DNA from: an uncultured Planctomycetales bacterium
Lineage (GTDB): Bacteria; Omnitrophota; Gorgyraeia; Zapsychrales; JANLHA01
NCBI GenBank assembly: GCA_964450385.1
Contig: CAYVEC010000009.1
Span: 391 to 64,390, forward strand
Direction: 5' to 3'
DNA length: 64,000 bases
The notes below the pieces were generated by a model, which worked only from the letters and a program-made list of their open reading frames with translations, searched no databases and was not told the origin of the DNA. A program made the translations under genes and the position numbers. Below are positions 7,032 through 31,654 of the stretch, piece after piece. Within the stretch, counting starts at the first letter, position 1. Every line of letters begins with the position of its first letter.

Positions 7032-7562
7032 TTACCAGTTCTCGATGGTCTTTTCCACGATGCGTTTCGCCAGGTCCTTGACCGCTTTGTCAACCGCGTC
7101 ATCCTCGCTACTGACCTGGGGGCCCTGAGTAAAATAATCCGCCTCACCCACAAATCGACCGGACTCCCAGAGCATCTGCTCCCCATGTCGGTCATAGACA
7201 GAAATGCTCACCGCGATCTGAATGCGATATTCCTCAGCATCATCACTGTCATCGCGCCTCAGGACGAATCGGCGATAATCAATGAGCTCCGCCTTCAACA
7301 CCAGATCCGCGGTGTCCGGCTCCGCCTCGAGCCGGAGGTTCCCGTCAAATAGAAAACGGTTGACCACCGCTTCATGGGCCTTCACCTCAAGGAGCGGAAC
7401 ATAGACATAGTCGCCGCCGATACTCGTAAAATCGATGCTGTTCTTAAAAGATTCCACATGGACGGTCTTGAGATGCGACGGGAGCGCTGACTTTGCCGTA
7501 TACCCGCACCCGAGCACCGATGCTGCCGCGACCACGGCGACCAACCGAAGGATCTGTTTCAT
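7032..7562 (-). CDS. lptE: LPS-assembly lipoprotein LptE
   Basis: Start reassigned to MKQILRLVAVVAAASVLGCGY (lipobox LGC), where the ATG overlaps the bamD stop in an ATGA arrangement. Gene order leuS...lptE-holA is conserved. RBS-like GGGGA lies upstream. Confidence 0.6.
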   Translation of the reverse strand: MKQILRLVAVVAAASVLGCGYTAKSALPSHLKTVHVESFKNSIDFTSIGGDYVYVPLLEVKAHEAVVNRFLFDGNLRLEAEPDTADLVLKAELIDYRRFVLRRDDSDDAEEYRIQIAVSISVYDRHGEQMLWESGRFVGEADYFTQGPQVSSEDDAVDKAVKDLAKRIVEKTIENW

Positions 7563-8503
7563 TTCGTTTCCCCTAGCTGTTGTAACCGCTCCAAGGCCTT
7601 TGACGCCCACGGCGTCTCTTTAAAATCGGAAATGATGATATTGTAATAAATCTTCGCGGACTCATATTGCCCGTGCTTATCATAAAACTCGGCGATGAGA
7701 AAATTGTTTTCCGCCTCTTTCTGCCGAAGCTGCTCGACCCGAACCGTGGCCTCTTGGGAGAGTTCGGCATCGGGATATTCGCGGGCAAAGCCTTCGAACT
7801 GATCGATGGCCGCCTGGGTGATCTGCTGATCATAGGCTGCGCCAGCGGAACGCTCGGCGTCAACAAGGGCCACCTGATACCGGGCCGACGTGGCCCAGTC
7901 GCTCGCGGGATAGTCATTGATCGTTTTTTCAAAGGCATCGCGCGCCTCCTGCCAGAGCCCCTGCCCCTTCAGGAACAGCCCGATCTTATACTGGGCGGGT
8001 GCGGCGAACTCGCCATACGGGGCGTTCTTGATCACCGTCTCAAATACCTCTGTGATGTTGGCCGGATTGGCGCGGAGCTTCGCCCAGATCCCGTCAGGCC
8101 GATTCTTCCCGTCGAGCATCTCACATCCGATCTTGTATTGCGCCTCAACGATCTCGGCCGAACGTGTTGTAAACGGATATTTCTTGATGACCTGCTGATA
8201 GGCCTGAAAGGCTTTATAGAGCTCTCCCTGCTCGTTTAAAAAACGGCCGATATAAAACTGCGCCTCCGCGGCCTCGCGGGCCTCTGGATAATGGCGGATC
8301 AGTTTTTGCATCTCTTGAACGGCCTTCGCGAAATCACCGGTCTGGGCCGCCTCAAGCCCGGCTTCGAGCTGCTTTTGGGGAGTGGGCTTCACATCATATT
8401 TTGGATTGACCCAGCGGCCGCTCTCAGGGGTCCATACCCAAAAGGCCATGGCCGGCCGAGCCCACATCGTCAAAAACAGCATAAAAATGAAAATTTTTCT
8501 CAT
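7559..8503 (-). CDS. bamD: Outer membrane protein assembly factor BamD (TPR lipoprotein)
   Basis: Start reassigned to MRKIFIFMLF with a GAGGGG RBS upstream. TPR-rich product with the YfiO/BamD-like repeat pattern. Confidence 0.7.
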   Translation of the reverse strand: MRKIFIFMLFLTMWARPAMAFWVWTPESGRWVNPKYDVKPTPQKQLEAGLEAAQTGDFAKAVQEMQKLIRHYPEAREAAEAQFYIGRFLNEQGELYKAFQAYQQVIKKYPFTTRSAEIVEAQYKIGCEMLDGKNRPDGIWAKLRANPANITEVFETVIKNAPYGEFAAPAQYKIGLFLKGQGLWQEARDAFEKTINDYPASDWATSARYQVALVDAERSAGAAYDQQITQAAIDQFEGFAREYPDAELSQEATVRVEQLRQKEAENNFLIAEFYDKHGQYESAKIYYNIIISDFKETPWASKALERLQQLGETK

Positions 8504-8546
8504 ATTCCCCTCTGATATATTAGTATTAGTAATTTTTAGCACTTTA

Positions 8547-10088
8547 TCATAGGCCCCTGTGTTTGTCAATCCAGCATCGGCGAAGAATCACCGCCCCCGC
8601 GATGAGAACCAAATAATAGATCACGACGAGCGGGACCGTGGGCGGAGGGATGACCCAGCAGGCCCCAGGCGCATAACGAAAAACGACCGCGCTTGCGATA
8701 AGCAGCCTCAACGCGGCCTGAATATTGACCGCGACCAAGGCCGCGGCGGCCGGACACAGGATCCCCACTGCAAGGAGAAGAAAGCCGCTCGCGATCAAAA
8801 AACCCGTGAGCGGGACCACGATCATGTTCGCCGCAAGGGCCCACCATGTGATGTGATGAAACCAGTACGCGACAAGCCCCGCGACACCGAGCCAGGCGGA
8901 AAGGTCGACCGCGACTGACTGGATCATCCGGTCCCCGAACGATTCCCGTTCGACCGGGAAGATCCGCCGGAGCCCGGCCTCGATCACCGCGAAAAGGACC
9001 ATGATCCCGCCAACCGCGGCGAACGATAATTGAAATCCAAGATCGGCGATATACCCGGGGTTCACACTGAGCGTGACCCACCCGGCCACGGCCAGGACGT
9101 GAAGACCGAGACGCGGCCGCTCCACGAGAAATGAGACAAAGAACATCGCGGCCATCACACAGGCCCGTAGCACGGACGGGCGCTCTCCGATGAGGGCCGC
9201 ATACCCGAGGAGGGCCGCCATGGTCACGATGCTCCGCGCCCTCATCCCCCCTGGAAAAAAACCAGCCAAAATGAAAAAGATCCCGGTGGCAATCCCGATA
9301 TGAAGGCCGCTGATCGCAAGGACATGCGAGATCCCGACCCGCTGGAACAGGTCGCGGAGATCCGACGAGAGACGCCCTCGGTCACCAAAGAGCAGGGCGC
9401 GCATCACCCCGCTGTCAAAACCCGGAAGATACCGGTCAAAGATCCCCAAACACCTATACCGGACCGATCGAAGAAACCGGCGCGGCGTCATCGGAATCGC
9501 CCTCTGTTCAATCGGATCCCGTCGAGAGACCGTGAGGACAAAGGCCACCCCCTGACGCGCCAAATACTCGTCATATGAACTCGTCCCATCGCGGTCAAGA
9601 CTGGAAAGCCTCTCCCAGCGACCACGGCACCGCACACGGTCCCCGTCCTTCAATTCCGATTGCCCATAGGCCTGGACAAGGACCCGTCCGCTCACCGGCA
9701 GGGTCTCCCCATCAAACCCGATCCGCGCCGCCTGGACAAAAAAGGACTGACGCGACCAGGCCGTTCCCCGGCGGATATCGCCCGCGATCTCGCCCTCGAT
9801 CCAGATCCGCCCCGGCGCGAGAGCTCCGTCAAACCGTCGCAGATCATCAAAGGCCGGGACCGCATGGGCCCGGGCGCAAAAGACCCCGAGCATGATGACC
9901 GCCAGGATGCAGAGGGCCGGCGACCAGGCTCGACGATAAAACACCCCCCACCCCGCGCCGAGACAGAACGCGAACGCCGAAACGGTCCAGAGCGGGATCC
10001 CCGGGCCCTGACCAACTCCGCAGCCTGTGGCAAAGGCGGCGGTCAAGATGATCACCGCATACTTATTCCGTTTCATCGCGCACCACAA
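8547..10088 (-). CDS. comEC: ComEC/Rec2 family DNA internalization channel (no metallo-beta-lactamase domain)
   Basis: 513-aa polytopic membrane protein with the competence-domain motif ISGLHIGIATG. It sits immediately downstream of comEA. Confidence 0.7.
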   Translation of the reverse strand: MWCAMKRNKYAVIILTAAFATGCGVGQGPGIPLWTVSAFAFCLGAGWGVFYRRAWSPALCILAVIMLGVFCARAHAVPAFDDLRRFDGALAPGRIWIEGEIAGDIRRGTAWSRQSFFVQAARIGFDGETLPVSGRVLVQAYGQSELKDGDRVRCRGRWERLSSLDRDGTSSYDEYLARQGVAFVLTVSRRDPIEQRAIPMTPRRFLRSVRYRCLGIFDRYLPGFDSGVMRALLFGDRGRLSSDLRDLFQRVGISHVLAISGLHIGIATGIFFILAGFFPGGMRARSIVTMAALLGYAALIGERPSVLRACVMAAMFFVSFLVERPRLGLHVLAVAGWVTLSVNPGYIADLGFQLSFAAVGGIMVLFAVIEAGLRRIFPVERESFGDRMIQSVAVDLSAWLGVAGLVAYWFHHITWWALAANMIVVPLTGFLIASGFLLLAVGILCPAAAALVAVNIQAALRLLIASAVVFRYAPGACWVIPPPTVPLVVIYYLVLIAGAVILRRCWIDKHRGL

Positions 10089-20755: not shown

Positions 20756-21775
20756 TCAGGCCCGTGATGGGTCGATCTGAGCGCAAGAATCACGGATCAC
20801 CAGCTCAGGAACCAGGACCTTTTGGAAGGGTTGTTTCTCTTTGCCGACAACAAGACTGTTTAAAACGCGGACGGCCTCCTCGGCCATCTGAAAGAGCGGC
20901 TGATGAACCGTGGTGAGGGCCACCGACCCGTAGAGGGCCCCGGGATTATCGTCAAACCCCACCACGGAGATGTCCTGAGGGACCCGCAAACCATGCTCCG
21001 TGATGACGGCGATCGCCTCAAGGGCCATATCATCCGAGGCTGCAAAGATCGCCGTCGGCCGCTTTGCGAGCTCAAGGAATTTTTCAGTGGCCAGCCGCGC
21101 GCTCCGCCGGGAATAATCGCCCTCCTGACAAAAATCAGCCGAGCAATCGATCCCGGCCTCAAGGGCCGCGGCGCGAAACCCCTCAAGCCGATGCCGGCCC
21201 GATTGGGTCTGCAGGTTTCCGGTGATCGTCGCAATCCGCCGATGCCCGAGCCCTAAGAGATAATTCGCGACGATGCTTCCTCCCGCCACATTATCGATCC
21301 CGATGTAATTGATCGACGGGTCCTCTTCAACAATATTGTTGATCACCATGCACGGCACGCCCGCGGCCAACGCGGCCTTGATCTGCCGGCGGTTCTCGAT
21401 GATGTCGGCAAAGACAACCCCGCCGACGCTCCGGGTGTTCAGATCATTAAACCCGTTGGTGATATGAAAAACAAGGTCAAGCCGAAGGGTCTCACAGGCA
21501 TGACCGACCCCGCGGATCAATTCAACCGCGTAATACGAATAAAAAATGCCCGGATAGCCGGGCATTACGAATCCGATCGAATTGTTAAGTCCCCGGGCGA
21601 GCCGCTGGGCGCTCGCATCAGGCTCATAGTGCAAGGCTGCGATGGCCTCTTCAACACGGGCCTGATTCTTCGGACTCACCGTCGATACATGATTGATGAC
21701 GCGTGAGACCGTCGTGATCGACACGCCGGCCCGCTTGGCCACATCCTCAATGCTCACCTTGCGCCGTGTGTTCAT
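20756..21775 (-). CDS. LacI-family transcriptional regulator
   Basis: N-terminal HTH (VSIEDVAKRAGVSITTVSRVINH) followed by a periplasmic-binding-protein-like sugar-binding domain. Confidence 0.8.
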   Translation of the reverse strand: MNTRRKVSIEDVAKRAGVSITTVSRVINHVSTVSPKNQARVEEAIAALHYEPDASAQRLARGLNNSIGFVMPGYPGIFYSYYAVELIRGVGHACETLRLDLVFHITNGFNDLNTRSVGGVVFADIIENRRQIKAALAAGVPCMVINNIVEEDPSINYIGIDNVAGGSIVANYLLGLGHRRIATITGNLQTQSGRHRLEGFRAAALEAGIDCSADFCQEGDYSRRSARLATEKFLELAKRPTAIFAASDDMALEAIAVITEHGLRVPQDISVVGFDDNPGALYGSVALTTVHQPLFQMAEEAVRVLNSLVVGKEKQPFQKVLVPELVIRDSCAQIDPSRA

Positions 21776-24067: not shown

Positions 24068-24919
24068 TTACTGGGCCATCTCTGCTAATTTATTTTCCGC
24101 TGCTTCGGAAGGCTTCCAGAACCAACCATTGGTATCCCAACATTGCGCAAAATAAAACTCATCAACAAGCTTCTTGTAGGCGTCCGCGGCCTTGACCGGA
24201 TCACCCGCCTTGCTGTAGGCCTCACCAAGAACGAACAACGAGGTCCCGACATCATTAAGTGCCCAATACGTAAAAATCTTTTCATTGGACTCCCACGGGA
24301 ATTCCGTCAACGAGGCCTGCATCTCTTTGGCCTTTTCTTCATACAGCTCTAAGGCCTTCGCAACATACGCCTTAACCGCTGCGAGATCATCCGCGGCCAA
24401 AGCCTGCCAGGCCTTCGTCACTAACGTCGATGAGCGATAATCGCCGAAATCAATCGTTGAGCCGCCCGCGATCATCTGGACCTTTTCCTTCGCGGCCTCG
24501 GCAGGTTTCCAAAACCAGCCGCCCGCGTCCCAACATTGACCATAGGTGAATTCATTGGTCACCTTTTGGTACGCGACCTTGGCCTGCTCCATCATGCCCG
24601 CGGCACGATAGGCCTCACCCTGAATGTAATATGCGGTCGCCACATCATTGAGCGCCCAATAGGCAAAGACCTCATCATTGGTGCCGGTAGCATACCCCTG
24701 AAGCCCCTCCTGCATCTTTTTGGCCTGCGCCTCGTAGAGCTCAAAACACTTATTGGTATACGCCAAGACTCCGTCCATATCGTTAGCGGCCAAGGCCTGC
24801 CAGGCTTTGCTCACCAAGGTGGCTGAACGATAATCGCCAAAATTATAGGCATGGACTGTTGAACACGCCATGAACAACCCTGCGGCTGCGATCATGGTCC
24901 CCACTACGAACTTCTTCAT
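24068..24919 (-). CDS. Lipoprotein made of two tandem ~130-aa alpha-helical repeats
   Basis: Start MKKFVVGTMIAAAGLFMACS with a strong GGGAGG RBS. The two halves are clearly homologous (FGDYRS.TLV.KAWQALAA...YWALNDV.T...QGEAY..AG....A..AY.K...EF....CWD..GWFWKP.EAA). Confidence 0.55.
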   Translation of the reverse strand: MKKFVVGTMIAAAGLFMACSTVHAYNFGDYRSATLVSKAWQALAANDMDGVLAYTNKCFELYEAQAKKMQEGLQGYATGTNDEVFAYWALNDVATAYYIQGEAYRAAGMMEQAKVAYQKVTNEFTYGQCWDAGGWFWKPAEAAKEKVQMIAGGSTIDFGDYRSSTLVTKAWQALAADDLAAVKAYVAKALELYEEKAKEMQASLTEFPWESNEKIFTYWALNDVGTSLFVLGEAYSKAGDPVKAADAYKKLVDEFYFAQCWDTNGWFWKPSEAAENKLAEMAQ

Positions 24920-25021
24920 ACGACTTCCTCCCTTCATGGATTGCAAATGATTGCCCTTAGAAAGACTGATACGACTGTTGAGATAGTATAACATTTATAT
25001 AGCCCTTTTGACAAGGTGGCG

Positions 25022-27553
25022 CTATTTTGATCCCCGTTCCTTGATCATTTTAAGGCTCCCCGCCATGAGCGCCCCAACGACAAGAATCCCAAGCCCCAGG
25101 GCAAGGGGTTTGCCCTGGCCATTGCGCCTCTCCCCCCGCCACATCTCCTCATAGGCAAAATACGACTCCCGCAACTGCCGCAGAAACGGGCTCTTCTTGC
25201 CATTGCCCTGGCCGATGAGGCCGAACCATTCCTCATAATAAAACCCACCGGGAAAGGGCCCGATCGCATCCGACTTCCGGTCATGATAAAACGGTTCGTA
25301 ATTTTTCCACCACTCATCCATCCATTCAAAAACCACACCCCCCAGGGCGTTCCCCACCCCATCGGACGTGCCGGCAAGGTTCGACTGAATATCAAGCCAA
25401 TTGCCCCGATGATACAAGGCCTGGGCATGCTCGCCTTCACTCAGGGTCATGTGACGGGCGTAGGCCGGAGCGCCGAATTCCGTAATGAACGCCGGTTTCC
25501 CCGTCGCGTCCTGAACCTGCTCCCAAAACGCGCCGAACCCATAATCCCCGCGATACACATTCGCGGCAAAGATATCGATATCCGGGGTGTGCCGGGCAAA
25601 GACATCGAGATACAGGGTGTCCCCATTACAGAGGGCCACGGGATGGTTCGGATCGATCTCCTTGATCATCCGCGCCACGTCATTCGCGAATTTAAAATAG
25701 GCCTCCGGCTTCTTATCGGCATTCGAGGCCACCCCATAATTGTTCTCGTTGCCCAAGAGCCACAAAAGAATGTAGGGCTCATCTTTGAATTCATTCACCA
25801 TCCTCCGGACCGAGGCCTTCATATTTTCCTGGTGTTCGGGATTCTCATAGTCGGTCCCCTCAAACCAAGACGCCCCGGACCCCAAGGTATATTTCCCCAG
25901 AAAATCCCCGAGAATGACCATCGTCCCATGCTCCTCATACATCTTCCGGAGGATCGCCTTGTCCGGGAACATCGGCTGATGATATTCACGGATCGTATTG
26001 ACCCCCAGGTCCTTCATTAATCGGAAATCCCCGACGGCAGGCTCATCCGGATCCTGCTCATTGTTCCGGTTCTTGTCCACCCAGGCGTCATACGGGCCAT
26101 CGGCAAGCCCATTATTATTCGTGTCCTCGCGCATCCACGATACAAGCGTCCCCTTGTCCGGACTCTGGCCGACCTTGGTCGGAGCGTACGTCATGCCGCG
26201 GATGACAAAAGGCTCGTCATTCACGAGGAGCTGCCAATGACCATTCTGATACTGAACGAGCCGCACGCGCCCCTTGCCTAACGCCCGCTTCACCCGGCCG
26301 AAACGGACCTTTTTCTTAAAGGCGGCACCGATCTGCGCCCGCCAAACATCCCATCCGGTTTTTTTATAGATGACCCCAGGATAGGTGCTGATCTCATCAT
26401 TGCTGATGTCATTGTCAAACCCGTTCTTCACCTGACACCGCATCCACTTCACCCCGAGCCCGAGTTCAGGATAAAAACGGACAATGTGTTTAATCTTGCC
26501 GATCGCCGCTTGGGCCGGATACCAGGGCGTATGCCAATTGGTCCAGGCGACCGTTTTGGGGAAATGGATCACGATCGCATGATAGGCCTTAAGGGCCTCA
26601 TGAATCATCCCGGCCTTTTCAAAGGTCATCCCGATATAAAAAAGACGCACCCCCCAGGGCTCCTTGGCGACAGCCCACTTAAAAAAGGCCGCCTCAAGGT
26701 CATCGGTAAAAATAAAATCCCAGTGCGACCCTTCGAGCCGCCCCTCGTCAAGGGCCTTTTTATACGCCGGATTCTTCAGGACCGATGAGGTGTCAGGATA
26801 GATCCCTTCGCCAACGGCATTTTTCAACCCAACCGGATCCGTAATGTGATAGACATATTGGTCCGTCCCCACGTTCTCGAAGGTCCCATACCGTCGATAA
26901 TCAATCACCTGCTCTGTCCCGGGATGCTCACGATTCGGGAGCAGACGGATCCGCGTCGGGCTCACATCCTCGACATGCTCCGTCACCTCGCCGAGGATCA
27001 CATTAATGCTGTCCTGGCTCTTCTCAGCGATCGACCAAAACCACCCCCGAGGGTCCCAGGCCCGCGCGTACGGGTACTCAGCGATCAGTTTGCGAAAGGC
27101 ATCGACGGCCTCTTCGGTCCGGCCATAATTCATCAGGGCCTCGGCCTGAACGAAAAAGATCGTCGCGAGGTCATTGAGGATCTGGTATTCCGCGTGCTGT
27201 GCCGTCGGAGGGAAATCCGTGAGCCCGGCCTGAAGCTCCTGCGCCTTGCTGCCGTAGAGCATCCGAGCCTCCTCGACCAATTGTTTAAGTTCGTCGAGTT
27301 TTCCCTGAGCCGATAACGCCCAGGCCTGGCGGACCAGTTCCGACGTCTCTTTGCCCGCGACCTGACCGCGCCCCTGCGTGACCACGACCGGAGCCGCATC
27401 GCCCCTCACCGTCTGAGACACCGTCTCCTCCGCCGAGCCCGACACGGGGCCAAGCGCCGCTCCGCCAAAAAGCAGAATCACTGCCGATAAAAAAATCGTA
27501 ACTCCCCTCACGCCGCCCCCCTTTTCATTATCCTTTAACAGCTCCGGCCGCAA
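25022..27553 (-). CDS. GH2-like (clan GH-A) glycoside hydrolase with an N-terminal helical-repeat region and a C-terminal TM anchor
   Basis: Acid/base motif LWLLGNENNYG (compare WSLGNES in GH2) and nucleophile motif AFITEFGAP (compare ITEYG). N-terminal signal peptide and two copies of the helical module found in the neighbouring lipoprotein. C-terminal hydrophobic segment LALGLGILVVGALMAGSL followed by a K/R-rich tail. Confidence 0.6.
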   Translation of the reverse strand: MRPELLKDNEKGGGVRGVTIFLSAVILLFGGAALGPVSGSAEETVSQTVRGDAAPVVVTQGRGQVAGKETSELVRQAWALSAQGKLDELKQLVEEARMLYGSKAQELQAGLTDFPPTAQHAEYQILNDLATIFFVQAEALMNYGRTEEAVDAFRKLIAEYPYARAWDPRGWFWSIAEKSQDSINVILGEVTEHVEDVSPTRIRLLPNREHPGTEQVIDYRRYGTFENVGTDQYVYHITDPVGLKNAVGEGIYPDTSSVLKNPAYKKALDEGRLEGSHWDFIFTDDLEAAFFKWAVAKEPWGVRLFYIGMTFEKAGMIHEALKAYHAIVIHFPKTVAWTNWHTPWYPAQAAIGKIKHIVRFYPELGLGVKWMRCQVKNGFDNDISNDEISTYPGVIYKKTGWDVWRAQIGAAFKKKVRFGRVKRALGKGRVRLVQYQNGHWQLLVNDEPFVIRGMTYAPTKVGQSPDKGTLVSWMREDTNNNGLADGPYDAWVDKNRNNEQDPDEPAVGDFRLMKDLGVNTIREYHQPMFPDKAILRKMYEEHGTMVILGDFLGKYTLGSGASWFEGTDYENPEHQENMKASVRRMVNEFKDEPYILLWLLGNENNYGVASNADKKPEAYFKFANDVARMIKEIDPNHPVALCNGDTLYLDVFARHTPDIDIFAANVYRGDYGFGAFWEQVQDATGKPAFITEFGAPAYARHMTLSEGEHAQALYHRGNWLDIQSNLAGTSDGVGNALGGVVFEWMDEWWKNYEPFYHDRKSDAIGPFPGGFYYEEWFGLIGQGNGKKSPFLRQLRESYFAYEEMWRGERRNGQGKPLALGLGILVVGALMAGSLKMIKERGSK

Positions 27554-28421
27554 GACCCCTAATGATATGTTTCTGAATGAACAGATAGATCAGAATGATC
27601 GGCACCGCCGCCATCGTGAGCCCCGCCATCAGAATCGGATATTCCACATTGTGCACGTCCGCAAACACCATGACCCCCCGCTGGAGGGGCATGATCGTCG
27701 GTTTGCCGGGAATATCATTCAACAACAGCATCGCCAAAACGTACTCATTCCATACATTAAGCGCGTTATAAATAATGACGACCGCGATCGCAGGCCGGGC
27801 CAGCGGCAGCGCCACATGCCGCCAGATCCCCATCTTGTTACATCCATCGATCCGCGCCGCGTCCTCGAGGTCCTGCGGCATCTGATCAAAGAACGTCTTC
27901 AACAAAATAATGCTCAACGAGAGCCCGACATTGATCATGCACAGGACATACCCGGTCTGCCGGACCCAGGGATGATGCGAATTAATAAACCCCATCTTCG
28001 TCATCAACACCGTTAGGGGGACGAAGCTCCCCGGCAGCGGGATCATCATCGCCAGAACAAAAAGAATGAAAAAAACATTCTTCCCCGGAAAGTCAAGCCG
28101 CGAGAACGCATACGCCGCCCACGAGGCGATGATCACGATCCCAATGACGACAGTCGTCGTATAAATCACACTGTTCCATAAATACTGTCCAAACTGCCCC
28201 TGAGTCCAGGCCCGAACATAATTCTCCGCGTGGATAGTCCGGGGAATCAGAGACTGGTCTGTAAAGATCCTCTCCTGGGTCATCAACGATGACCGCACCA
28301 TCCAGAAGAGCGGGAACAGGCACGTCAGGGTCACGGCGATCAAGACAGCCTGAACCAGCGCCGAGCTCACCATTCTCTGTGTTCGATATCGATTCAATCC
28401 CGCCTCCCCGCTCCGGCGCAA
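27528..28421 (-). CDS. Carbohydrate ABC transporter permease (MalG-like)
   Basis: Six TM helices and the EAA loop motif (DAARIDGCNKMGIWRHVALPLARPAI). Confidence 0.8.
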   Translation of the reverse strand: MRRSGEAGLNRYRTQRMVSSALVQAVLIAVTLTCLFPLFWMVRSSLMTQERIFTDQSLIPRTIHAENYVRAWTQGQFGQYLWNSVIYTTTVVIGIVIIASWAAYAFSRLDFPGKNVFFILFVLAMMIPLPGSFVPLTVLMTKMGFINSHHPWVRQTGYVLCMINVGLSLSIILLKTFFDQMPQDLEDAARIDGCNKMGIWRHVALPLARPAIAVVIIYNALNVWNEYVLAMLLLNDIPGKPTIMPLQRGVMVFADVHNVEYPILMAGLTMAAVPIILIYLFIQKHIIRGLAAGAVKG

Positions 28422-28440: not shown

Positions 28441-29463
28441 TCACGCCTTCCTCATGCGGCGCTCAACGCGTTTTAAGACCCCTGACATCGCGATCAGGAT
28501 CGCACCAAAAACAATCCCCATGGCGCAGGCATATCCATATTCCCGTGTTCCGGTCATCGCCGCCAGGATCCGCGTCCCTGGAACCTCCGTGTGATATCCT
28601 GGCCCGCCGTTGGTCATCGATAGAATCAGGACAAAGGCCTGCATCGATCCGAGGATCGTCAGGATCACCACGACCACGATAACCGGCATCATGATCGGAA
28701 CCGTCACGTGGACGAACGTTCGCCACCAATCCGCCCCGTCGACCTCAGCCGCCTCATAGAGCTGGCGGTCGATCGTCTGAAGCCCGGCCAGGAACATGAT
28801 GAACCCCCACCCGAATCCTTTCCAACTGTGCACGATCGCGATACAGGCCAAGGCCGTCCTCGGATTCGACAGCCAATTCGTGATCAAATGATCCCAGCCG
28901 ACCGCGTGGAGCCAATGATTCAGCAGACCGTAATATTCCCCATTCTGCATGCCGCCCTCAAGGATCCATTTCCAAATGAACCCGACCACGACCTCTGAGA
29001 GCACGGGTGGAATAAAAAAAATCACGCGATAAAAATTCTTCCCCCGGATCTCGCGGTCACAGGCCAGGGCGAGCATAAAGGCCAAGGCGTTCTGGAACGT
29101 CAGCGCGACGAGGGTAATAAAAACAGCGTGCCCGACCGACTGCCACCAGATCAGGTCCGCGCTCAGGCGAAGTCGCCCTGACCATAGGGCCGTCCACCAC
29201 TGGCCGGCCGACTGCCACCACGACCCGGCCCCCCAACCCTCCGCGGGGATAACGCTCAGGAGGTCCGAAAAATTCCTGAGGCCCACAAACGGCCGCAGAC
29301 CGCTGATCCCATTCCACTCGCGGAGCGACAGATTAAACGTCTCATAAAAGGGGTAAATGTAAAAGATCGTAAAGATCACAACCGCCGGGACGATAAAAAG
29401 AAAACTCGTGAACCGCCCCCAGCGGTGACTCACCACGTCTCGTTCAATCTCACGTTCTCTCAT
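28441..29463 (-). CDS. Carbohydrate ABC transporter permease (MalF-like)
   Basis: EAA motif (EAAEVDGADWWRTFVHVTVPIMMP) in a polytopic protein. Confidence 0.8.
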   Translation of the reverse strand: MREREIERDVVSHRWGRFTSFLFIVPAVVIFTIFYIYPFYETFNLSLREWNGISGLRPFVGLRNFSDLLSVIPAEGWGAGSWWQSAGQWWTALWSGRLRLSADLIWWQSVGHAVFITLVALTFQNALAFMLALACDREIRGKNFYRVIFFIPPVLSEVVVGFIWKWILEGGMQNGEYYGLLNHWLHAVGWDHLITNWLSNPRTALACIAIVHSWKGFGWGFIMFLAGLQTIDRQLYEAAEVDGADWWRTFVHVTVPIMMPVIVVVVILTILGSMQAFVLILSMTNGGPGYHTEVPGTRILAAMTGTREYGYACAMGIVFGAILIAMSGVLKRVERRMRKA

Positions 29464-29491: not shown

Positions 29492-30784
29492 TTAAGGGAC
29501 CCGTCTCCGGGCGCGCTCCATCTGCCGGGCCTTGACCTGCTGAACCTCCGCAGCCACCGCCTCGGGCGTCTTCTCCCCGATAATGATCGACTGGATGCCC
29601 TTTAAGAATTTTTCGCTCACCACGGCGTCCTCATCCAGCTCCCAGATCGATGGGTGCGTGGTCCATGCGAGTCCCCGGCCGAATTCCATGAGCTCAGCCG
29701 GCAGCGAGGCGACCGCGTTCTTATTCGCCGGGAGATTTTTCGTCGTCTCCGCCAAAAATGCCTGCTGTTCCGTTGCGGTCAACCATTTCAAAAAATCGAT
29801 CGCCTTCTCTCGTCGGAATGATGCGGCATTCACGCGGAAGGCTCCACCCTCTGCCCCCCAGATCAAGAGCCGATGCCGAAGCGTGATCGGCGGAGGGATC
29901 ATGACCCCATATGACAGATTCGGATTCATTCCATGATACACATTAATGCACCACGACCCATTAAAGGCAAAAGCCGCCCGCTCAAGGGCAAAATCCTGCT
30001 CGGCAAGCTTATTTGACTTCGTGACAATCCCCTCGGCAAGGACCCCTCGTCGAGAAAGAGTATCAAAGATCCCGAGGACCTGCACCCAGTCCGGATCGGT
30101 ATACGGCACCTCGCCGCGAAAGGTCGCCATGATCTTTTCCTCACCCATGATATTGAAGGCGTAATTCGAGGCGAAACACCCGGCGAGCCAGAGTTCGGCC
30201 CACCCCGAGACAAACGGCGTGATCCCACGGGCCTTGAGAAGATCGGCCGCGGCCAAGAACTCATTAAAGGTCTCGGGAACCTTCTTGACCCCTGCCTCAG
30301 CCAAAAGACGCTTGTTATAAACGAGCTGAATATTCATCATGTCGACGGGGACACCGTATATCCCCTCGTCGACACCGTAGGAATTGCCCCGGCCGAAACG
30401 ATTCCCTTCGAGCGCCTTCGTAAAAAAGACCCCTTCCCACGCCTTATCATCGGCCTCAAAATCAGACCGAAGATTCGCCACAAACCCGGCCTTGATGAAG
30501 TCGGCCACAACCTTTTTATTATCTAAAATACCGTAAATATCTGGGAGGATCCGGGCCTGAGCAGCTGCGACGATCTTTTGCGAATAGACGGAAGGAGAAA
30601 AGAACTGAAAATCGATCCAGATCCCGGTTTCGTCGTAATATCGTTCCGCGAGCTCCAAAAAGGCATTGTGGCGATCGGTCATCCAATGCCACACCGTCAC
30701 CGCGTTGATGTCACCCTGCCCCTTACCGCATCCGGTCAGGGCAAGACACATCACCACGATCACGAGACACACTTTCTTGAGCAC
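29492..30784 (-). CDS. Extracellular solute-binding lipoprotein of a sugar ABC transporter
   Basis: Lipobox (LALTGCGK) and family-1 solute-binding-protein fold features. First gene of the transporter operon. Confidence 0.8.
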   Translation of the reverse strand: MLKKVCLVIVVMCLALTGCGKGQGDINAVTVWHWMTDRHNAFLELAERYYDETGIWIDFQFFSPSVYSQKIVAAAQARILPDIYGILDNKKVVADFIKAGFVANLRSDFEADDKAWEGVFFTKALEGNRFGRGNSYGVDEGIYGVPVDMMNIQLVYNKRLLAEAGVKKVPETFNEFLAAADLLKARGITPFVSGWAELWLAGCFASNYAFNIMGEEKIMATFRGEVPYTDPDWVQVLGIFDTLSRRGVLAEGIVTKSNKLAEQDFALERAAFAFNGSWCINVYHGMNPNLSYGVMIPPPITLRHRLLIWGAEGGAFRVNAASFRREKAIDFLKWLTATEQQAFLAETTKNLPANKNAVASLPAELMEFGRGLAWTTHPSIWELDEDAVVSEKFLKGIQSIIIGEKTPEAVAAEVQQVKARQMERARRRVP

Positions 30785-30968: not shown

Positions 30969-31319
30969 TTAGACATCGTCACCGGCAACCAATTTAAAAA
31001 TCCGCTGGGTCTGCATAAAATTGACACGGTGAAATTCCATTCCCACATCCCACAAATCCGCCGACTTGGATTTCATCCAGACCACCCGCCCATTCAAGTT
31101 AAGGGGACTCAGACCGTCAGGAAGATCAACCTGAAGGGAGACGCTGTCATGAAGGAACATCCGCTGATGCGTGGTGAATCGCACCCCCTGGGCCGAGGCG
31201 TCGCGGAGAAAAACATCTTTCCCATACTCTTCCCTAGAATGCTTAAACTTGACAGGGAACCGGGCAGGGAACCGTTCAAACAGCCGCTTGTCTTTAACGT
31301 TCGCTTCTCGTTGCATCAT
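30969..31319 (-). CDS. Stand-alone PilZ-domain protein (c-di-GMP receptor candidate)
   Basis: RxxxR motif (KRLFERFPARFPV) and DxSxxG motif (RDASAQGVRF). Confidence 0.6.
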   Translation of the reverse strand: MMQREANVKDKRLFERFPARFPVKFKHSREEYGKDVFLRDASAQGVRFTTHQRMFLHDSVSLQVDLPDGLSPLNLNGRVVWMKSKSADLWDVGMEFHRVNFMQTQRIFKLVAGDDV

Positions 31320-31654
31320 GGAGTTTCCTCAAAATAATTTTTAAGACGGGTTTTTGAGCCCGGATACAAAATGCGCAGAAATTTGACGCCGACACGGAAG
31401 AGACCAGAAAGCCCTTCGCGCCGGACCCAGGCAACCTCGCCGAGAACAAGCGACGGCTCTCCGCCGACATTCAGATCGACCTCAACTGCGATCTGTCTCC
31501 GGATCGGGATCCGCTTGCGCGAGACAAGCCCGATCCCGCCCTGGCTGATATCAATCGTGCAGAGATCGCTAAAAACGCCCCGGTCAGGCGCGTCAACCGG
31601 AACGCGGCACGCATGACGAAGCGACCTGCGATGATTTATAACATGTTTATTCAT
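31316..31654 (-). CDS. Stand-alone PilZ-domain protein (c-di-GMP receptor candidate)
   Basis: RxxxR motif (RRSLRHACRVPV) and DxSxGG motif (DISQGGIGL). Overlaps the downstream PilZ gene by 4 nt. Confidence 0.6.
   Translation of the reverse strand: MNKHVINHRRSLRHACRVPVDAPDRGVFSDLCTIDISQGGIGLVSRKRIPIRRQIAVEVDLNVGGEPSLVLGEVAWVRREGLSGLFRVGVKFLRILYPGSKTRLKNYFEETP

Follow-up and report, generated by a model that had tools for sequence, protein, structure and literature searches.

A repeated domain of TPR descent in a conserved sugar-uptake cassette of Candidatus Omnitrophota

What is the repeat shared by two adjacent exported proteins of a sugar-uptake locus in an Omnitrophota genome, and what could it do there? 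The question arises from a stretch of 64,000 nt (hereafter the window: contig CAYVEC010000009.1, positions 391 to 64,390, of assembly GCA_964450385.1, recorded as an uncultured Planctomycetales bacterium and placed by GTDB in the Omnitrophota), of which positions 24,068 to 27,553 encode a small secreted protein and a glycoside hydrolase (GH). An original prediction, made from the letters alone, saw in these two proteins four copies of a previously unrecognised helical module of about 130 aa. We find that the module is very probably a distinct extracytoplasmic domain family of the tetratricopeptide repeat (TPR) superfamily, to which neither Pfam-A, NCBIfam nor the PDB gives a name.

The copies were compared with each other and with a profile of the module (alignment A3, 39 module sequences, 123 positions); residue numbers for the genes refer to the 308-aa open reading frame (ORF) of the small protein and to the 843-aa ORF of the hydrolase. 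The small protein is, as predicted, an internal tandem duplication: its two full copies, L1 and L2, are 54% identical over 126 aa (E 9e-43, pairwise BLASTP). A third full copy, G1, lies in the hydrolase; with 116-122 aa aligned, L1 and L2 are 33-39% identical to it (E 8e-23 and 5e-26). Relative to 500 shuffles, the Smith-Waterman z-scores for these three copies range from 31 to 58, so that the resemblance on which the prediction was built is significant. The fourth segment, G2, is a half copy: its residues at about 300-360 align with the C-terminal 55 or so residues of the module only (30-33% identity), with z-scores of 8.7-9.7 to L1 and L2 and 3.7 to G1. Since G2 matches the profile at positions 65-119 only, the count becomes three full modules and one half, not four. 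No further copy was found among the 493 ORFs of the window with the A3 profile. A 342-aa ORF (7562-8587, minus strand) matched the profile weakly in several stretches, all within positions 55-96 of its TPR part (full E 2.7e-5), and is an ordinary TPR protein, not a module copy.

The AlphaFold2 (AF2) models give the module a fixed order of elements: two helices of 13 and 24 residues, a short helix, a helix pair of 19 and 14 residues, a hairpin and a cap formed by a helix of 14 residues. For the small protein the model, made with 47 orthologs, has a predicted local distance difference test score (pLDDT) of 89.5 and a predicted TM-score (pTM) of 0.78. It places the helices of L1 at 32-44, 48-71, 81-85, 88-106 and 110-123, followed by the hairpin at 129-137 and a helix at 139-152, and those of L2 at 163-175, 179-202, 212-215, 219-237 and 241-254, followed by the hairpin and a helix at 270-282. 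G1 shows the same helix/hairpin/helix pattern in the hydrolase model; it is without the FGD[YF]xS motif that opens most members. G2 consists of a short helix, one TPR pair (300-313 and 317-330), a Trp-rich hairpin and a capping helix (346-360). The hairpin of the module is short, two-stranded and rich in Trp, and falls on the motif QCWDxxGWFW. The whole unit of about 123-130 residues thus holds two TPR-like helix pairs, of which the second alone is a canonical TPR.

Pfam recognises exactly this pair, once per module, in the small protein: TPR_6 (PF13174) at E 3.6e-10 and 40.3 bits for a cut-off of 26.3, TPR_2 (PF07719) at 27.4 bits for a cut-off of 27, and also TPR_1 (PF00515). The TPR stretch aligns residue by residue with designed consensus TPRs. 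Among PDB sequences the profile matches at positions 65-100 only, and all the chains concerned are TPR or designed consensus TPR chains. The top 50 Foldseek matches in the PDB are likewise all TPR or TPR-like repeat proteins, although weak (best E 4e-3, TM-score at most 0.32). Because the Pfam and PDB-sequence matches are to TPRs and Foldseek returns TPR proteins only, we assign the module to the TPR superfamily; a 34-residue consensus repeat is present in the sequence and an antiparallel array of helix pairs in the AF2 model. The comparison proposed with the original prediction, AlphaFold followed by fold matching, was carried out in this way and bore out a TPR-like helical fold. The rest of the module is unlike a canonical TPR. 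Positions 1-64 and 100-123 match nothing among PDB sequences, and about 70% of the length matches no TPR model. What the module shares with canonical TPRs is one bona fide 34-aa helix pair; in contrast to them it evolves as a unit of 123-130 aa in which an atypical long helix pair, a short helix, the TPR, the hairpin and the cap follow each other in fixed order, and it also occurs as an autonomous single domain.

No family model covers the module from end to end in Pfam-A (2025 copy) or NCBIfam (June 2026), searched with the window proteins and 15 other carriers, and NCBIfam gave no match above cut-off on the window proteins. As far as these two libraries go, the claim that the module was previously unrecognised stands, the annotated family that could have refuted it not having been found there. 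One candidate, PF26410, was rejected: it is GH5_mannosidase, with a weak match on the catalytic barrel. Homologs carry public names such as 'tetratricopeptide repeat protein', 'GH2 TIM barrel-domain protein' or 'hypothetical' only. A literature search found no description of the module or of the cassette around it, and two Omnitrophota preprints mention generic TPR and GH2 domains only.

The breadth of the family was measured by searching the A3 profile, as had been suggested, against 1.84 billion protein cluster representatives (clusters at 50% identity). With a limit of E <= 1e-3 it matched 1743 clusters, of which 795 pass at 1e-10 and 148 at 1e-30. Almost every match spans the whole module (positions 2-121 of 123). 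Carriers are proteins of 133 to 1998 aa with one to seven copies, seven matched stretches being found in one protein. Of the 146 best-scoring proteins, 96 contain a single full copy, 36 contain two, and another 12 contain between three and five. Single complete copies in at least 96 of these 146 proteins, together with 214 end-to-end instances from clusters less than 50% identical, argue for an old and autonomous module. In these 214 near-full instances the signature is A10-W11, A37 (100%), L59-N60 (99%)-D61-V62-x-T64, A82, Q97-x-W99-D100, G103 and W106; the motif read earlier in the window copies (YWALNDV...GEAY...CWD..GWFWKP.EAA) was correct and is this family signature. A disulfide between the common cysteines C29 and C98 was considered and rejected, as the two do not co-vary (Fisher p 0.43, 214 instances). 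Signal peptides are present on almost all of the small single-module proteins (n=65) and on both window proteins. Larger carriers join the module to GH2_C/GH72-like barrels (P0315 and P0347, the former adjoined by a GH5 cellulase gene), a glycosyltransferase family 2 (GT2) cellulose-synthase-like domain, a chitobiase C-terminal domain (CHB_HEX_C_1 in P0261), RHS repeats and Ig-like domains. The GT2 carrier (P0300, L006 1930-5538) has 1202 aa and two module copies, and connects the module with the synthesis of polysaccharides, not only with their degradation.

The distribution of the module was examined in one genome per GTDB species, which gave 306 confirmed loci; locus counts below refer to the best 80 of these. 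All 80 are Omnitrophota, as are all named cluster members, and the best homologs of both window proteins come from metagenome-assembled genomes of Candidatus Omnitrophota. The module is essentially restricted to this phylum. Some cassette proteins of Omnitrophota type are publicly labelled 'Candidatus Bathyarchaeia archaeon' or 'uncultured Planctomycetales bacterium' (records of P0034 and P0123; L007, L009, L015 and others); these labels are probably binning or automated-taxonomy errors.

The small protein had been called a lipoprotein. Its likely start is the ATG at 24919 (283 aa), not 24994, with a ribosome-binding site (RBS) GGGAGGAAG 5 nt upstream. The N-termini of 47 of 47 orthologs end in an AxA-like site preceding YNFGDY, and Cys is present in a minority only. 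Since the site is of signal peptidase I type in the 47 orthologs and Cys is not conserved, the family rule is secretion and not lipidation, and the name lipoprotein has to be dropped: the protein is most likely an ordinary secreted one, judging from its sequence. The window copy has an atypical LFMAC sequence in its signal peptide, so this copy alone may be lipidated. At least 1503 homologs were found, the best of them 61-72% identical. In some species the same cassette slot holds a three-module protein (P0009), which shows that the copy number of the module is evolutionarily labile.

The hydrolase probably starts at the GTG at 27511 (829 aa), not at 27553, with an RBS AAAGGGGGG upstream; this start gives MRGVTIFLSAV..., a signal peptide resembling those of the orthologs, which are 58-72% identical. 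Its AF2 model has a pLDDT of 81 and a pTM of 0.78. The insert between G1 and G2, about 100 residues, has no family match; it has many invariant residues in 54 orthologs and accompanies the catalytic domain in 63 of the 80 loci. The beta-sandwich domain before the barrel has strands in the model at 366-376, 387-397, 421-425, 430-435, 440-444 and 451-455. The window copy ends in a hydrophobic helix followed by basic residues; 2 of the 54 orthologs have such an end, the other one being P0139.

The earlier label 'GH2-like' was partly right. Enzymes of family GH2 combine a sugar-binding domain (PF02837), an Ig-like domain (PF00703) and a barrel (PF02836). In the hydrolase a part of the GH2 barrel model matches (profile 39-215 of 302, E 3e-11), but PF02837 and PF00703 are absent, and the GH2 equivalogs of NCBIfam reach 17-28 bits where 544-2000 would be needed; membership in GH2 was rejected. 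By sequence, the solved proteins that come nearest belong to GH158 (9oro, E 1e-11 over 133 residues; 6pal, E 3e-8), ahead of GH2 enzymes. By fold GH158 is again first (9p26, E 9e-13, TM-score 0.58 on the target), followed by GH2 beta-glucuronidases and GH72 transglycosylases, at 14-20% identity; the latter two score nearly as well as GH158. The top structural matches of the barrel (GH158, GH2, GH72, GH5) are all of clan GH-A, and at the family level the GH158 match is weak (133 residues, 17-20% structural identity). On sequence and predicted fold, the hydrolase is a clan GH-A barrel nearer GH158 than GH2. The putative acid/base is E603 in GNENN (codon 25745-25747) and the putative nucleophile E692 in FITEFG (codon 25478-25480); N602, E603 and E692 are invariant in the 54 orthologs. 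We infer a retaining glycosidase of clan GH-A, in which E603 would follow strand 4 and E692 strand 7; the exported glycanase is apparently active. The GH158 endo-beta-1,3-glucanases (BuGH158, 6pal; GH158(Pro), 9oro/9p26; PMC7157763, PMC13195107) share with it the NE and E catalytic residues of clan GH-A; unlike the window hydrolase, the solved enzymes have no N-terminal TPR modules.

Both genes belong to a minus-strand operon with the order solute-binding protein (SBP), two permeases, TPR-hydrolase, two-module protein, lipoprotein, coiled-coil protein and LacI regulator (Table 1). The window SBP is nearest to maltose and chito-oligosaccharide binders. No SusC-type TonB-dependent transporter was found beside the TPR genes in the window or in the 80 species loci, where an ABC importer stands instead; the cassette contains no porin or glycosyltransferase, no tol-pal genes adjoin the two-module protein gene in the window, and no gene of family GH94 is present in the 64,000 nt.

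Table 1. Positions of the cassette genes and of the parts of the two TPR-derived proteins in the window.
Feature	Positions	Strand	Basis or remark
CUT1-type sugar ABC importer SBP	29492-30784	minus	PF01547/PF13416, E about 5e-27
Permease 1 of sugar importer	28441-29463	minus	BPD_transp_1 in syntenic loci
Permease 2 of sugar importer	27528-28421	minus	BPD_transp_1 in syntenic loci
Exported TPR-glycoside hydrolase gene	25022..27511	minus	ORF up to TTG 27553 (843 aa)
Module copy G1, full (hydrolase residues 67-186)	26996..27355	minus	profile independent E-value (i-E) 2e-52, positions 2-122
Insert between G1 and G2, about 100 residues (187-285)	26699..26995	minus	mixed alpha/beta, pLDDT 82-97
Half module G2 (hydrolase residues 286-360)	26474..26698	minus	profile i-E 2e-4, positions 65-119 of 123
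Beta-sandwich domain before barrel (residues 366-455)	26189..26458	minus	AF2 model
Clan GH-A (beta/alpha)8 catalytic domain (residues 456-806)	25136..26188	minus	PF02836, E 3e-11; AF2
C-terminal hydrophobic helix (residues 817-841), optional membrane anchor	25031..25105	minus	AF2 model
Two-module TPR-derived protein gene	24068..24919	minus	ORF up to 24994 (308 aa)
Signal peptide MKKFVVGTMIAAAGLFMACSTVHA	24848..24919	minus	predicted cleavage between VHA and YN, signal peptidase I type
Module copy L1, full, 130 aa (residues 50-179)	24458..24847	minus	profile i-E 8e-52
Module copy L2, full, 129 aa (residues 180-308)	24071..24457	minus	profile i-E 2e-51
Lipoprotein, 218 aa	23293-23949	minus	lipobox conserved
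Coiled-coil protein, membrane-anchored, 448 aa	21792-23138	minus	cassette conservation
LacI-family regulator	20756-21775	minus	cassette conservation

The hydrolase and TPR protein genes are kept together across the phylum. Of the 65 loci with enough flank, 57 have a hydrolase barrel immediately upstream of the TPR protein, and the lipoprotein follows immediately downstream of the TPR protein in 65 of 72. The coiled-coil protein occurs in 58 of 67 loci and LacI in 58; the upstream order of SBP and permeases is kept in 42-53 of the 80 species loci, and the whole array from SBP to MnmG in 42. Compared with the window, the barrel has a median identity of 71% over the 80 loci, the TPR protein one of 62% and the SBP one of 58%. 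Five contigs inspected individually have one and the same order: MnmE, two PilZ genes, sometimes a GH94 gene, SBP, two permeases, TPR-hydrolase, TPR protein, a protein of about 220 aa, one of about 440 aa, LacI and MnmG. The GH94 protein near the cassette in several genomes matches cellobiose phosphorylases over its full length (E 6e-143, PDB 3qde), with chitobiose phosphorylase second and laminaribiose phosphorylase much weaker. In L001 (4169-6586), L004 (4143-6833) and L005 (4821-7292) its gene is flanked by the PilZ genes on one side and the SBP gene on the other; the window, L002 and L003 lack it, so that in some lineages the phosphorolytic step must be encoded elsewhere or be missing.

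The 218-aa protein is the true lipoprotein of the locus, with a conserved L-x-G-C lipobox. It has a beta-rich domain of about 165 residues with four conserved cysteines and a C-terminal motif, FYLDxIxYE, resembling those of carbohydrate-binding modules (CBM); no Pfam, significant NCBIfam or PDB match was found, five diverse orthologs included, and it may be a glycan-binding component of the cassette. The 448-aa protein has an N-terminal membrane helix, a coiled coil of about 300 residues and a small C-terminal beta domain with a faint FlgT_C match; it diverges fast (median identity 39%) and is long enough to span the periplasm. Immediately upstream of the SBP gene are two small tandem ORFs (116 and 112 aa; 30969-31654, minus strand). 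Genes in this slot in L002, L004 and L005 are annotated PF07238 PilZ, of the cyclic di-GMP receptor type; the window ORFs are likened to them by position alone, and the counterparts in L007-L086 lie mostly beyond the 6-kb flanks. The PilZ-slot genes hint at cyclic di-GMP control of the locus. GC skew is negative in each 2-kb bin of positions 1-64000 (cumulative -4.4) and the inspected genes at 18.5-37 kb are nearly all on the minus strand, which fits a single replication arm.

The module had been thought specific to this type of locus, and this turned out to be wrong. Seven loci have a paralog without the cassette, four of them beside an sdhCAB-like cluster and one after RHS genes; a single-module protein adjoins a Pst/Pho (phosphate-transport) locus, and giant multidomain proteins also carry the module. 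In L039, L065, L069 and L077 the paralog is a stand-alone two-module protein (284-286 aa, signal peptide, AYDFG start) upstream of a Sir2-type deacetylase-like gene and sdhC/sdhA/sdhB-like genes, whose identities were read from N-terminal sequences only.

What the module does has to be deduced from these contexts. The cassette would serve to take up oligosaccharides with beta linkages: a polysaccharide would be cut outside the cytoplasm by the exported glycanase of clan GH-A, the SBP and the two permeases would bring in the cleavage products, the cellobiose-phosphorylase-like GH94 enzyme encoded next door in many genomes would split them, and LacI would control the operon. Within it we tentatively read the modules as a protein-docking scaffold for the glycanase, a reading to which we give less than even odds. 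The modules would be non-catalytic docking elements: G1, the insert and G2 would form a rigid N-terminal body on the hydrolase, to which the free two- or three-module protein would dock, possibly binding the lipoprotein and the coiled-coil protein as well, and the complex would keep the glycanase beside the importer. The scaffold might also contact the glycan chain, as does the TPR domain of PgaA, but the evidence does not require it.

Several observations favour such a scaffold. The family-wide invariants fall, in the alignments, on canonical TPR packing positions (small residues of the 8/20/27 type, aromatic ones of the 4 type), with no evident common ligand site. The module recurs in contexts unrelated to glycans, at the Pst/Pho locus, the sdhCAB-like clusters and the RHS genes. 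The TPR protein of the cassette is as well conserved as the catalytic domain (median identities 62% and 71%, with 58% for the SBP), which would be expected of a part with fixed protein partners. The AF2 confidence values (pTM 0.78; pLDDT 82-97 through the insert and G2) suggest that the enzyme and its N-terminal modules pack together as a single body. Finally, docking of periplasmic glycan-processing enzymes by TPRs is established: the TPR domain of PgaA binds both the polymer and PgaB and modulates the activity of PgaB (PMC9384988).

Other findings weigh against it, and some of them fit the main rival, possible but doubtful in our estimate, namely that the module is a helical domain of a new kind that binds glycans directly. 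The beta-glycan substrate or its oligosaccharide products would then be bound by the Trp-rich hairpin together with the concave face of the TPR, the hydrolase would be targeted in cis, and the free protein of two or three modules would capture glycans in the periplasm or at the surface. The recurrent association with carbohydrate-active domains (GH-A barrels in P0315 and P0347, GT2 in P0300, the chitobiase C-terminal domain in P0261, the GH5 cellulase beside P0315) fits glycan binding equally well, and the cassette is itself a sugar-uptake operon. The QCWDxxGWFW hairpin brings three or four aromatics beside conserved Asp, Asn and Glu, a composition typical of sugar-binding sites; N60, D61 and D100 resemble sugar-binding chemistry, and so does E78 of L1, a Glu that does not vary among the cassette copies and lies at TPR position 9, on the concave side. 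SusD binds glycans with a TPR-like surface. The PgaA TPR domain is a further example (PMC9384988). The sugar chemistry of our proposal is also uneven: the fold of the hydrolase is nearest to beta-1,3-glucanases (GH158, GH72), yet the GH94 neighbour resembles cellobiose and chitobiose phosphorylases, and the window itself has none. However, no similarity to SusD or to a known CBM was found in Pfam, the Foldseek top 50 or the PDB-sequence searches, stand-alone copies lie in non-glycan neighbourhoods, and the residues invariant in all contexts are mainly at packing positions. Accessory proteins that bind glycans usually diverge fast, whereas the TPR protein is 61-72% identical across species, and the beta-rich lipoprotein, separate and conserved, could bind the glycan in its place. 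We rank tethering or scaffolding somewhat above glycan binding.

A general cell-envelope retention domain, with a role like that of LysM, SLH, SPOR or PG_binding_1, is unlikely. Its ligand would be peptidoglycan, an outer-membrane glycolipid or the S-layer, and it would hold diverse exported proteins, the hydrolase included, on the very small Omnitrophota cell. The module does follow the pattern of wall-binding domains, being always exported, in one to seven tandem copies, fused to unrelated exported domains or alone in unrelated contexts, with identical invariant polar and aromatic residues throughout; 52 of the 54 hydrolase orthologs lack a membrane anchor, so that a retention device would be useful, and the best sequence matches, though weak, are with the TPR_6/CpoB type, which is associated with the envelope. 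But it has no likeness to known wall-binding domains, the CpoB/YbgF model gives 19 bits for a 90-bit cut-off, and a mere anchor would hardly account for a stand-alone protein of two or three modules that is kept at 61-72% identity within a catabolic operon. It is quite improbable, too, that the cassette is an Omnitrophota-specific envelope-spanning machine for glycan capture and import, in place of the SusCD/TonB systems lacking there. In such a machine the outer-membrane lipoprotein with its unclassified beta-rich domain would capture the polymer, the membrane-anchored stalk of some 300 coiled-coil residues would cross the periplasm, and the modules on the glycanase and on the free protein would be the hub that docks the enzyme to the stalk while the glycan is threaded to the ABC importer; the module would be reused across the phylum, giant proteins included, as a general cell-surface docking element. 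By far the least probable account is an ordinary array of 34-aa TPRs in which the larger unit is only apparent, through recent duplication in a lineage. Pfam scores at or near the cut-offs, a Foldseek list of TPR proteins only and the tandem origin of L1 and L2 agree with it, but the repeat period is 123-130 aa and not 34, one helix pair alone matches TPR models while positions 1-64 and 100-123 match nothing, the unit contains a beta-hairpin, and single complete copies and divergent end-to-end instances abound (at least 96 of 146 proteins; 214 instances).

A docking scaffold, our preferred reading, can also be compared with known systems. The scaffolds of exopolysaccharide export (PgaA, PelB, BcsC, AlgK) share with the window an exported TPR-type module associated with a periplasmic glycoside hydrolase, and the TPR domain of PgaA is the best analogy for a scaffold that perhaps touches the glycan. 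In those systems, whose task is the export of a polymer, the TPR goes together with a GT2 synthase and a porin of the outer membrane; the window operon is an importer without either, and beyond the TPR no sequence relation to the module was detected. Membership in these synthase-dependent scaffolds was rejected, the one distant carrier with GT2 (P0300) lying outside the cassette. SusD/RagB, to which the small protein had been likened, is similarly a helical accessory protein with TPRs, and its gene adjoins that of a glycanase at a locus for glycan use. Proteins of the SusD type are lipoproteins with one domain, a much larger one, whereas the two-module protein is built of much smaller modular repeats, is most likely not a lipoprotein and has no SusC/TonB-dependent partner. 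The analogy was not sustained and membership was rejected, as there is no SusD/RagB match in Pfam at E <= 1, none in the top 50 Foldseek PDB matches and no SusC-type transporter at the locus. CpoB/YbgF is also exported with repeats of TPR_6 type and matches weakly (TIGR02795 E 0.0015; PDB 6g5s E 0.0015); it was rejected with 19.1 bits for a cut-off of 90.1, one repeat covered and no Tol-Pal context.

What is new here is a lineage-restricted domain family; the TPR superfamily around it is known, and the finding overturns no expectations, its function being deduced from context. The definition of the module yields a searchable family of about 1700 clusters, a candidate for Pfam or InterPro, and a possible phylum marker for Omnitrophota sequences mislabelled in public records. 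Omnitrophota are widespread, mostly uncultured and very small bacteria whose feeding is debated, a predatory or parasitic lifestyle having been proposed (10.1101/2023.11.21.568195, 10.64898/2026.06.07.730766). The cassette is among the most conserved sugar-acquisition loci of the phylum, its gene order being kept between mnmE and mnmG in most of the 80 species genomes, and three of its proteins (the TPR-module protein, the lipoprotein and the coiled-coil protein) are without an informative family assignment. If the module binds glycans, it would be a new family of helical carbohydrate-binding modules; if it is a docking element, it would help to explain how the surface proteins of Omnitrophota are assembled. 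The cassette may hold clues to the diet of these bacteria and to the organisation of an exported glycanase where Sus- or TonB-type systems are lacking.

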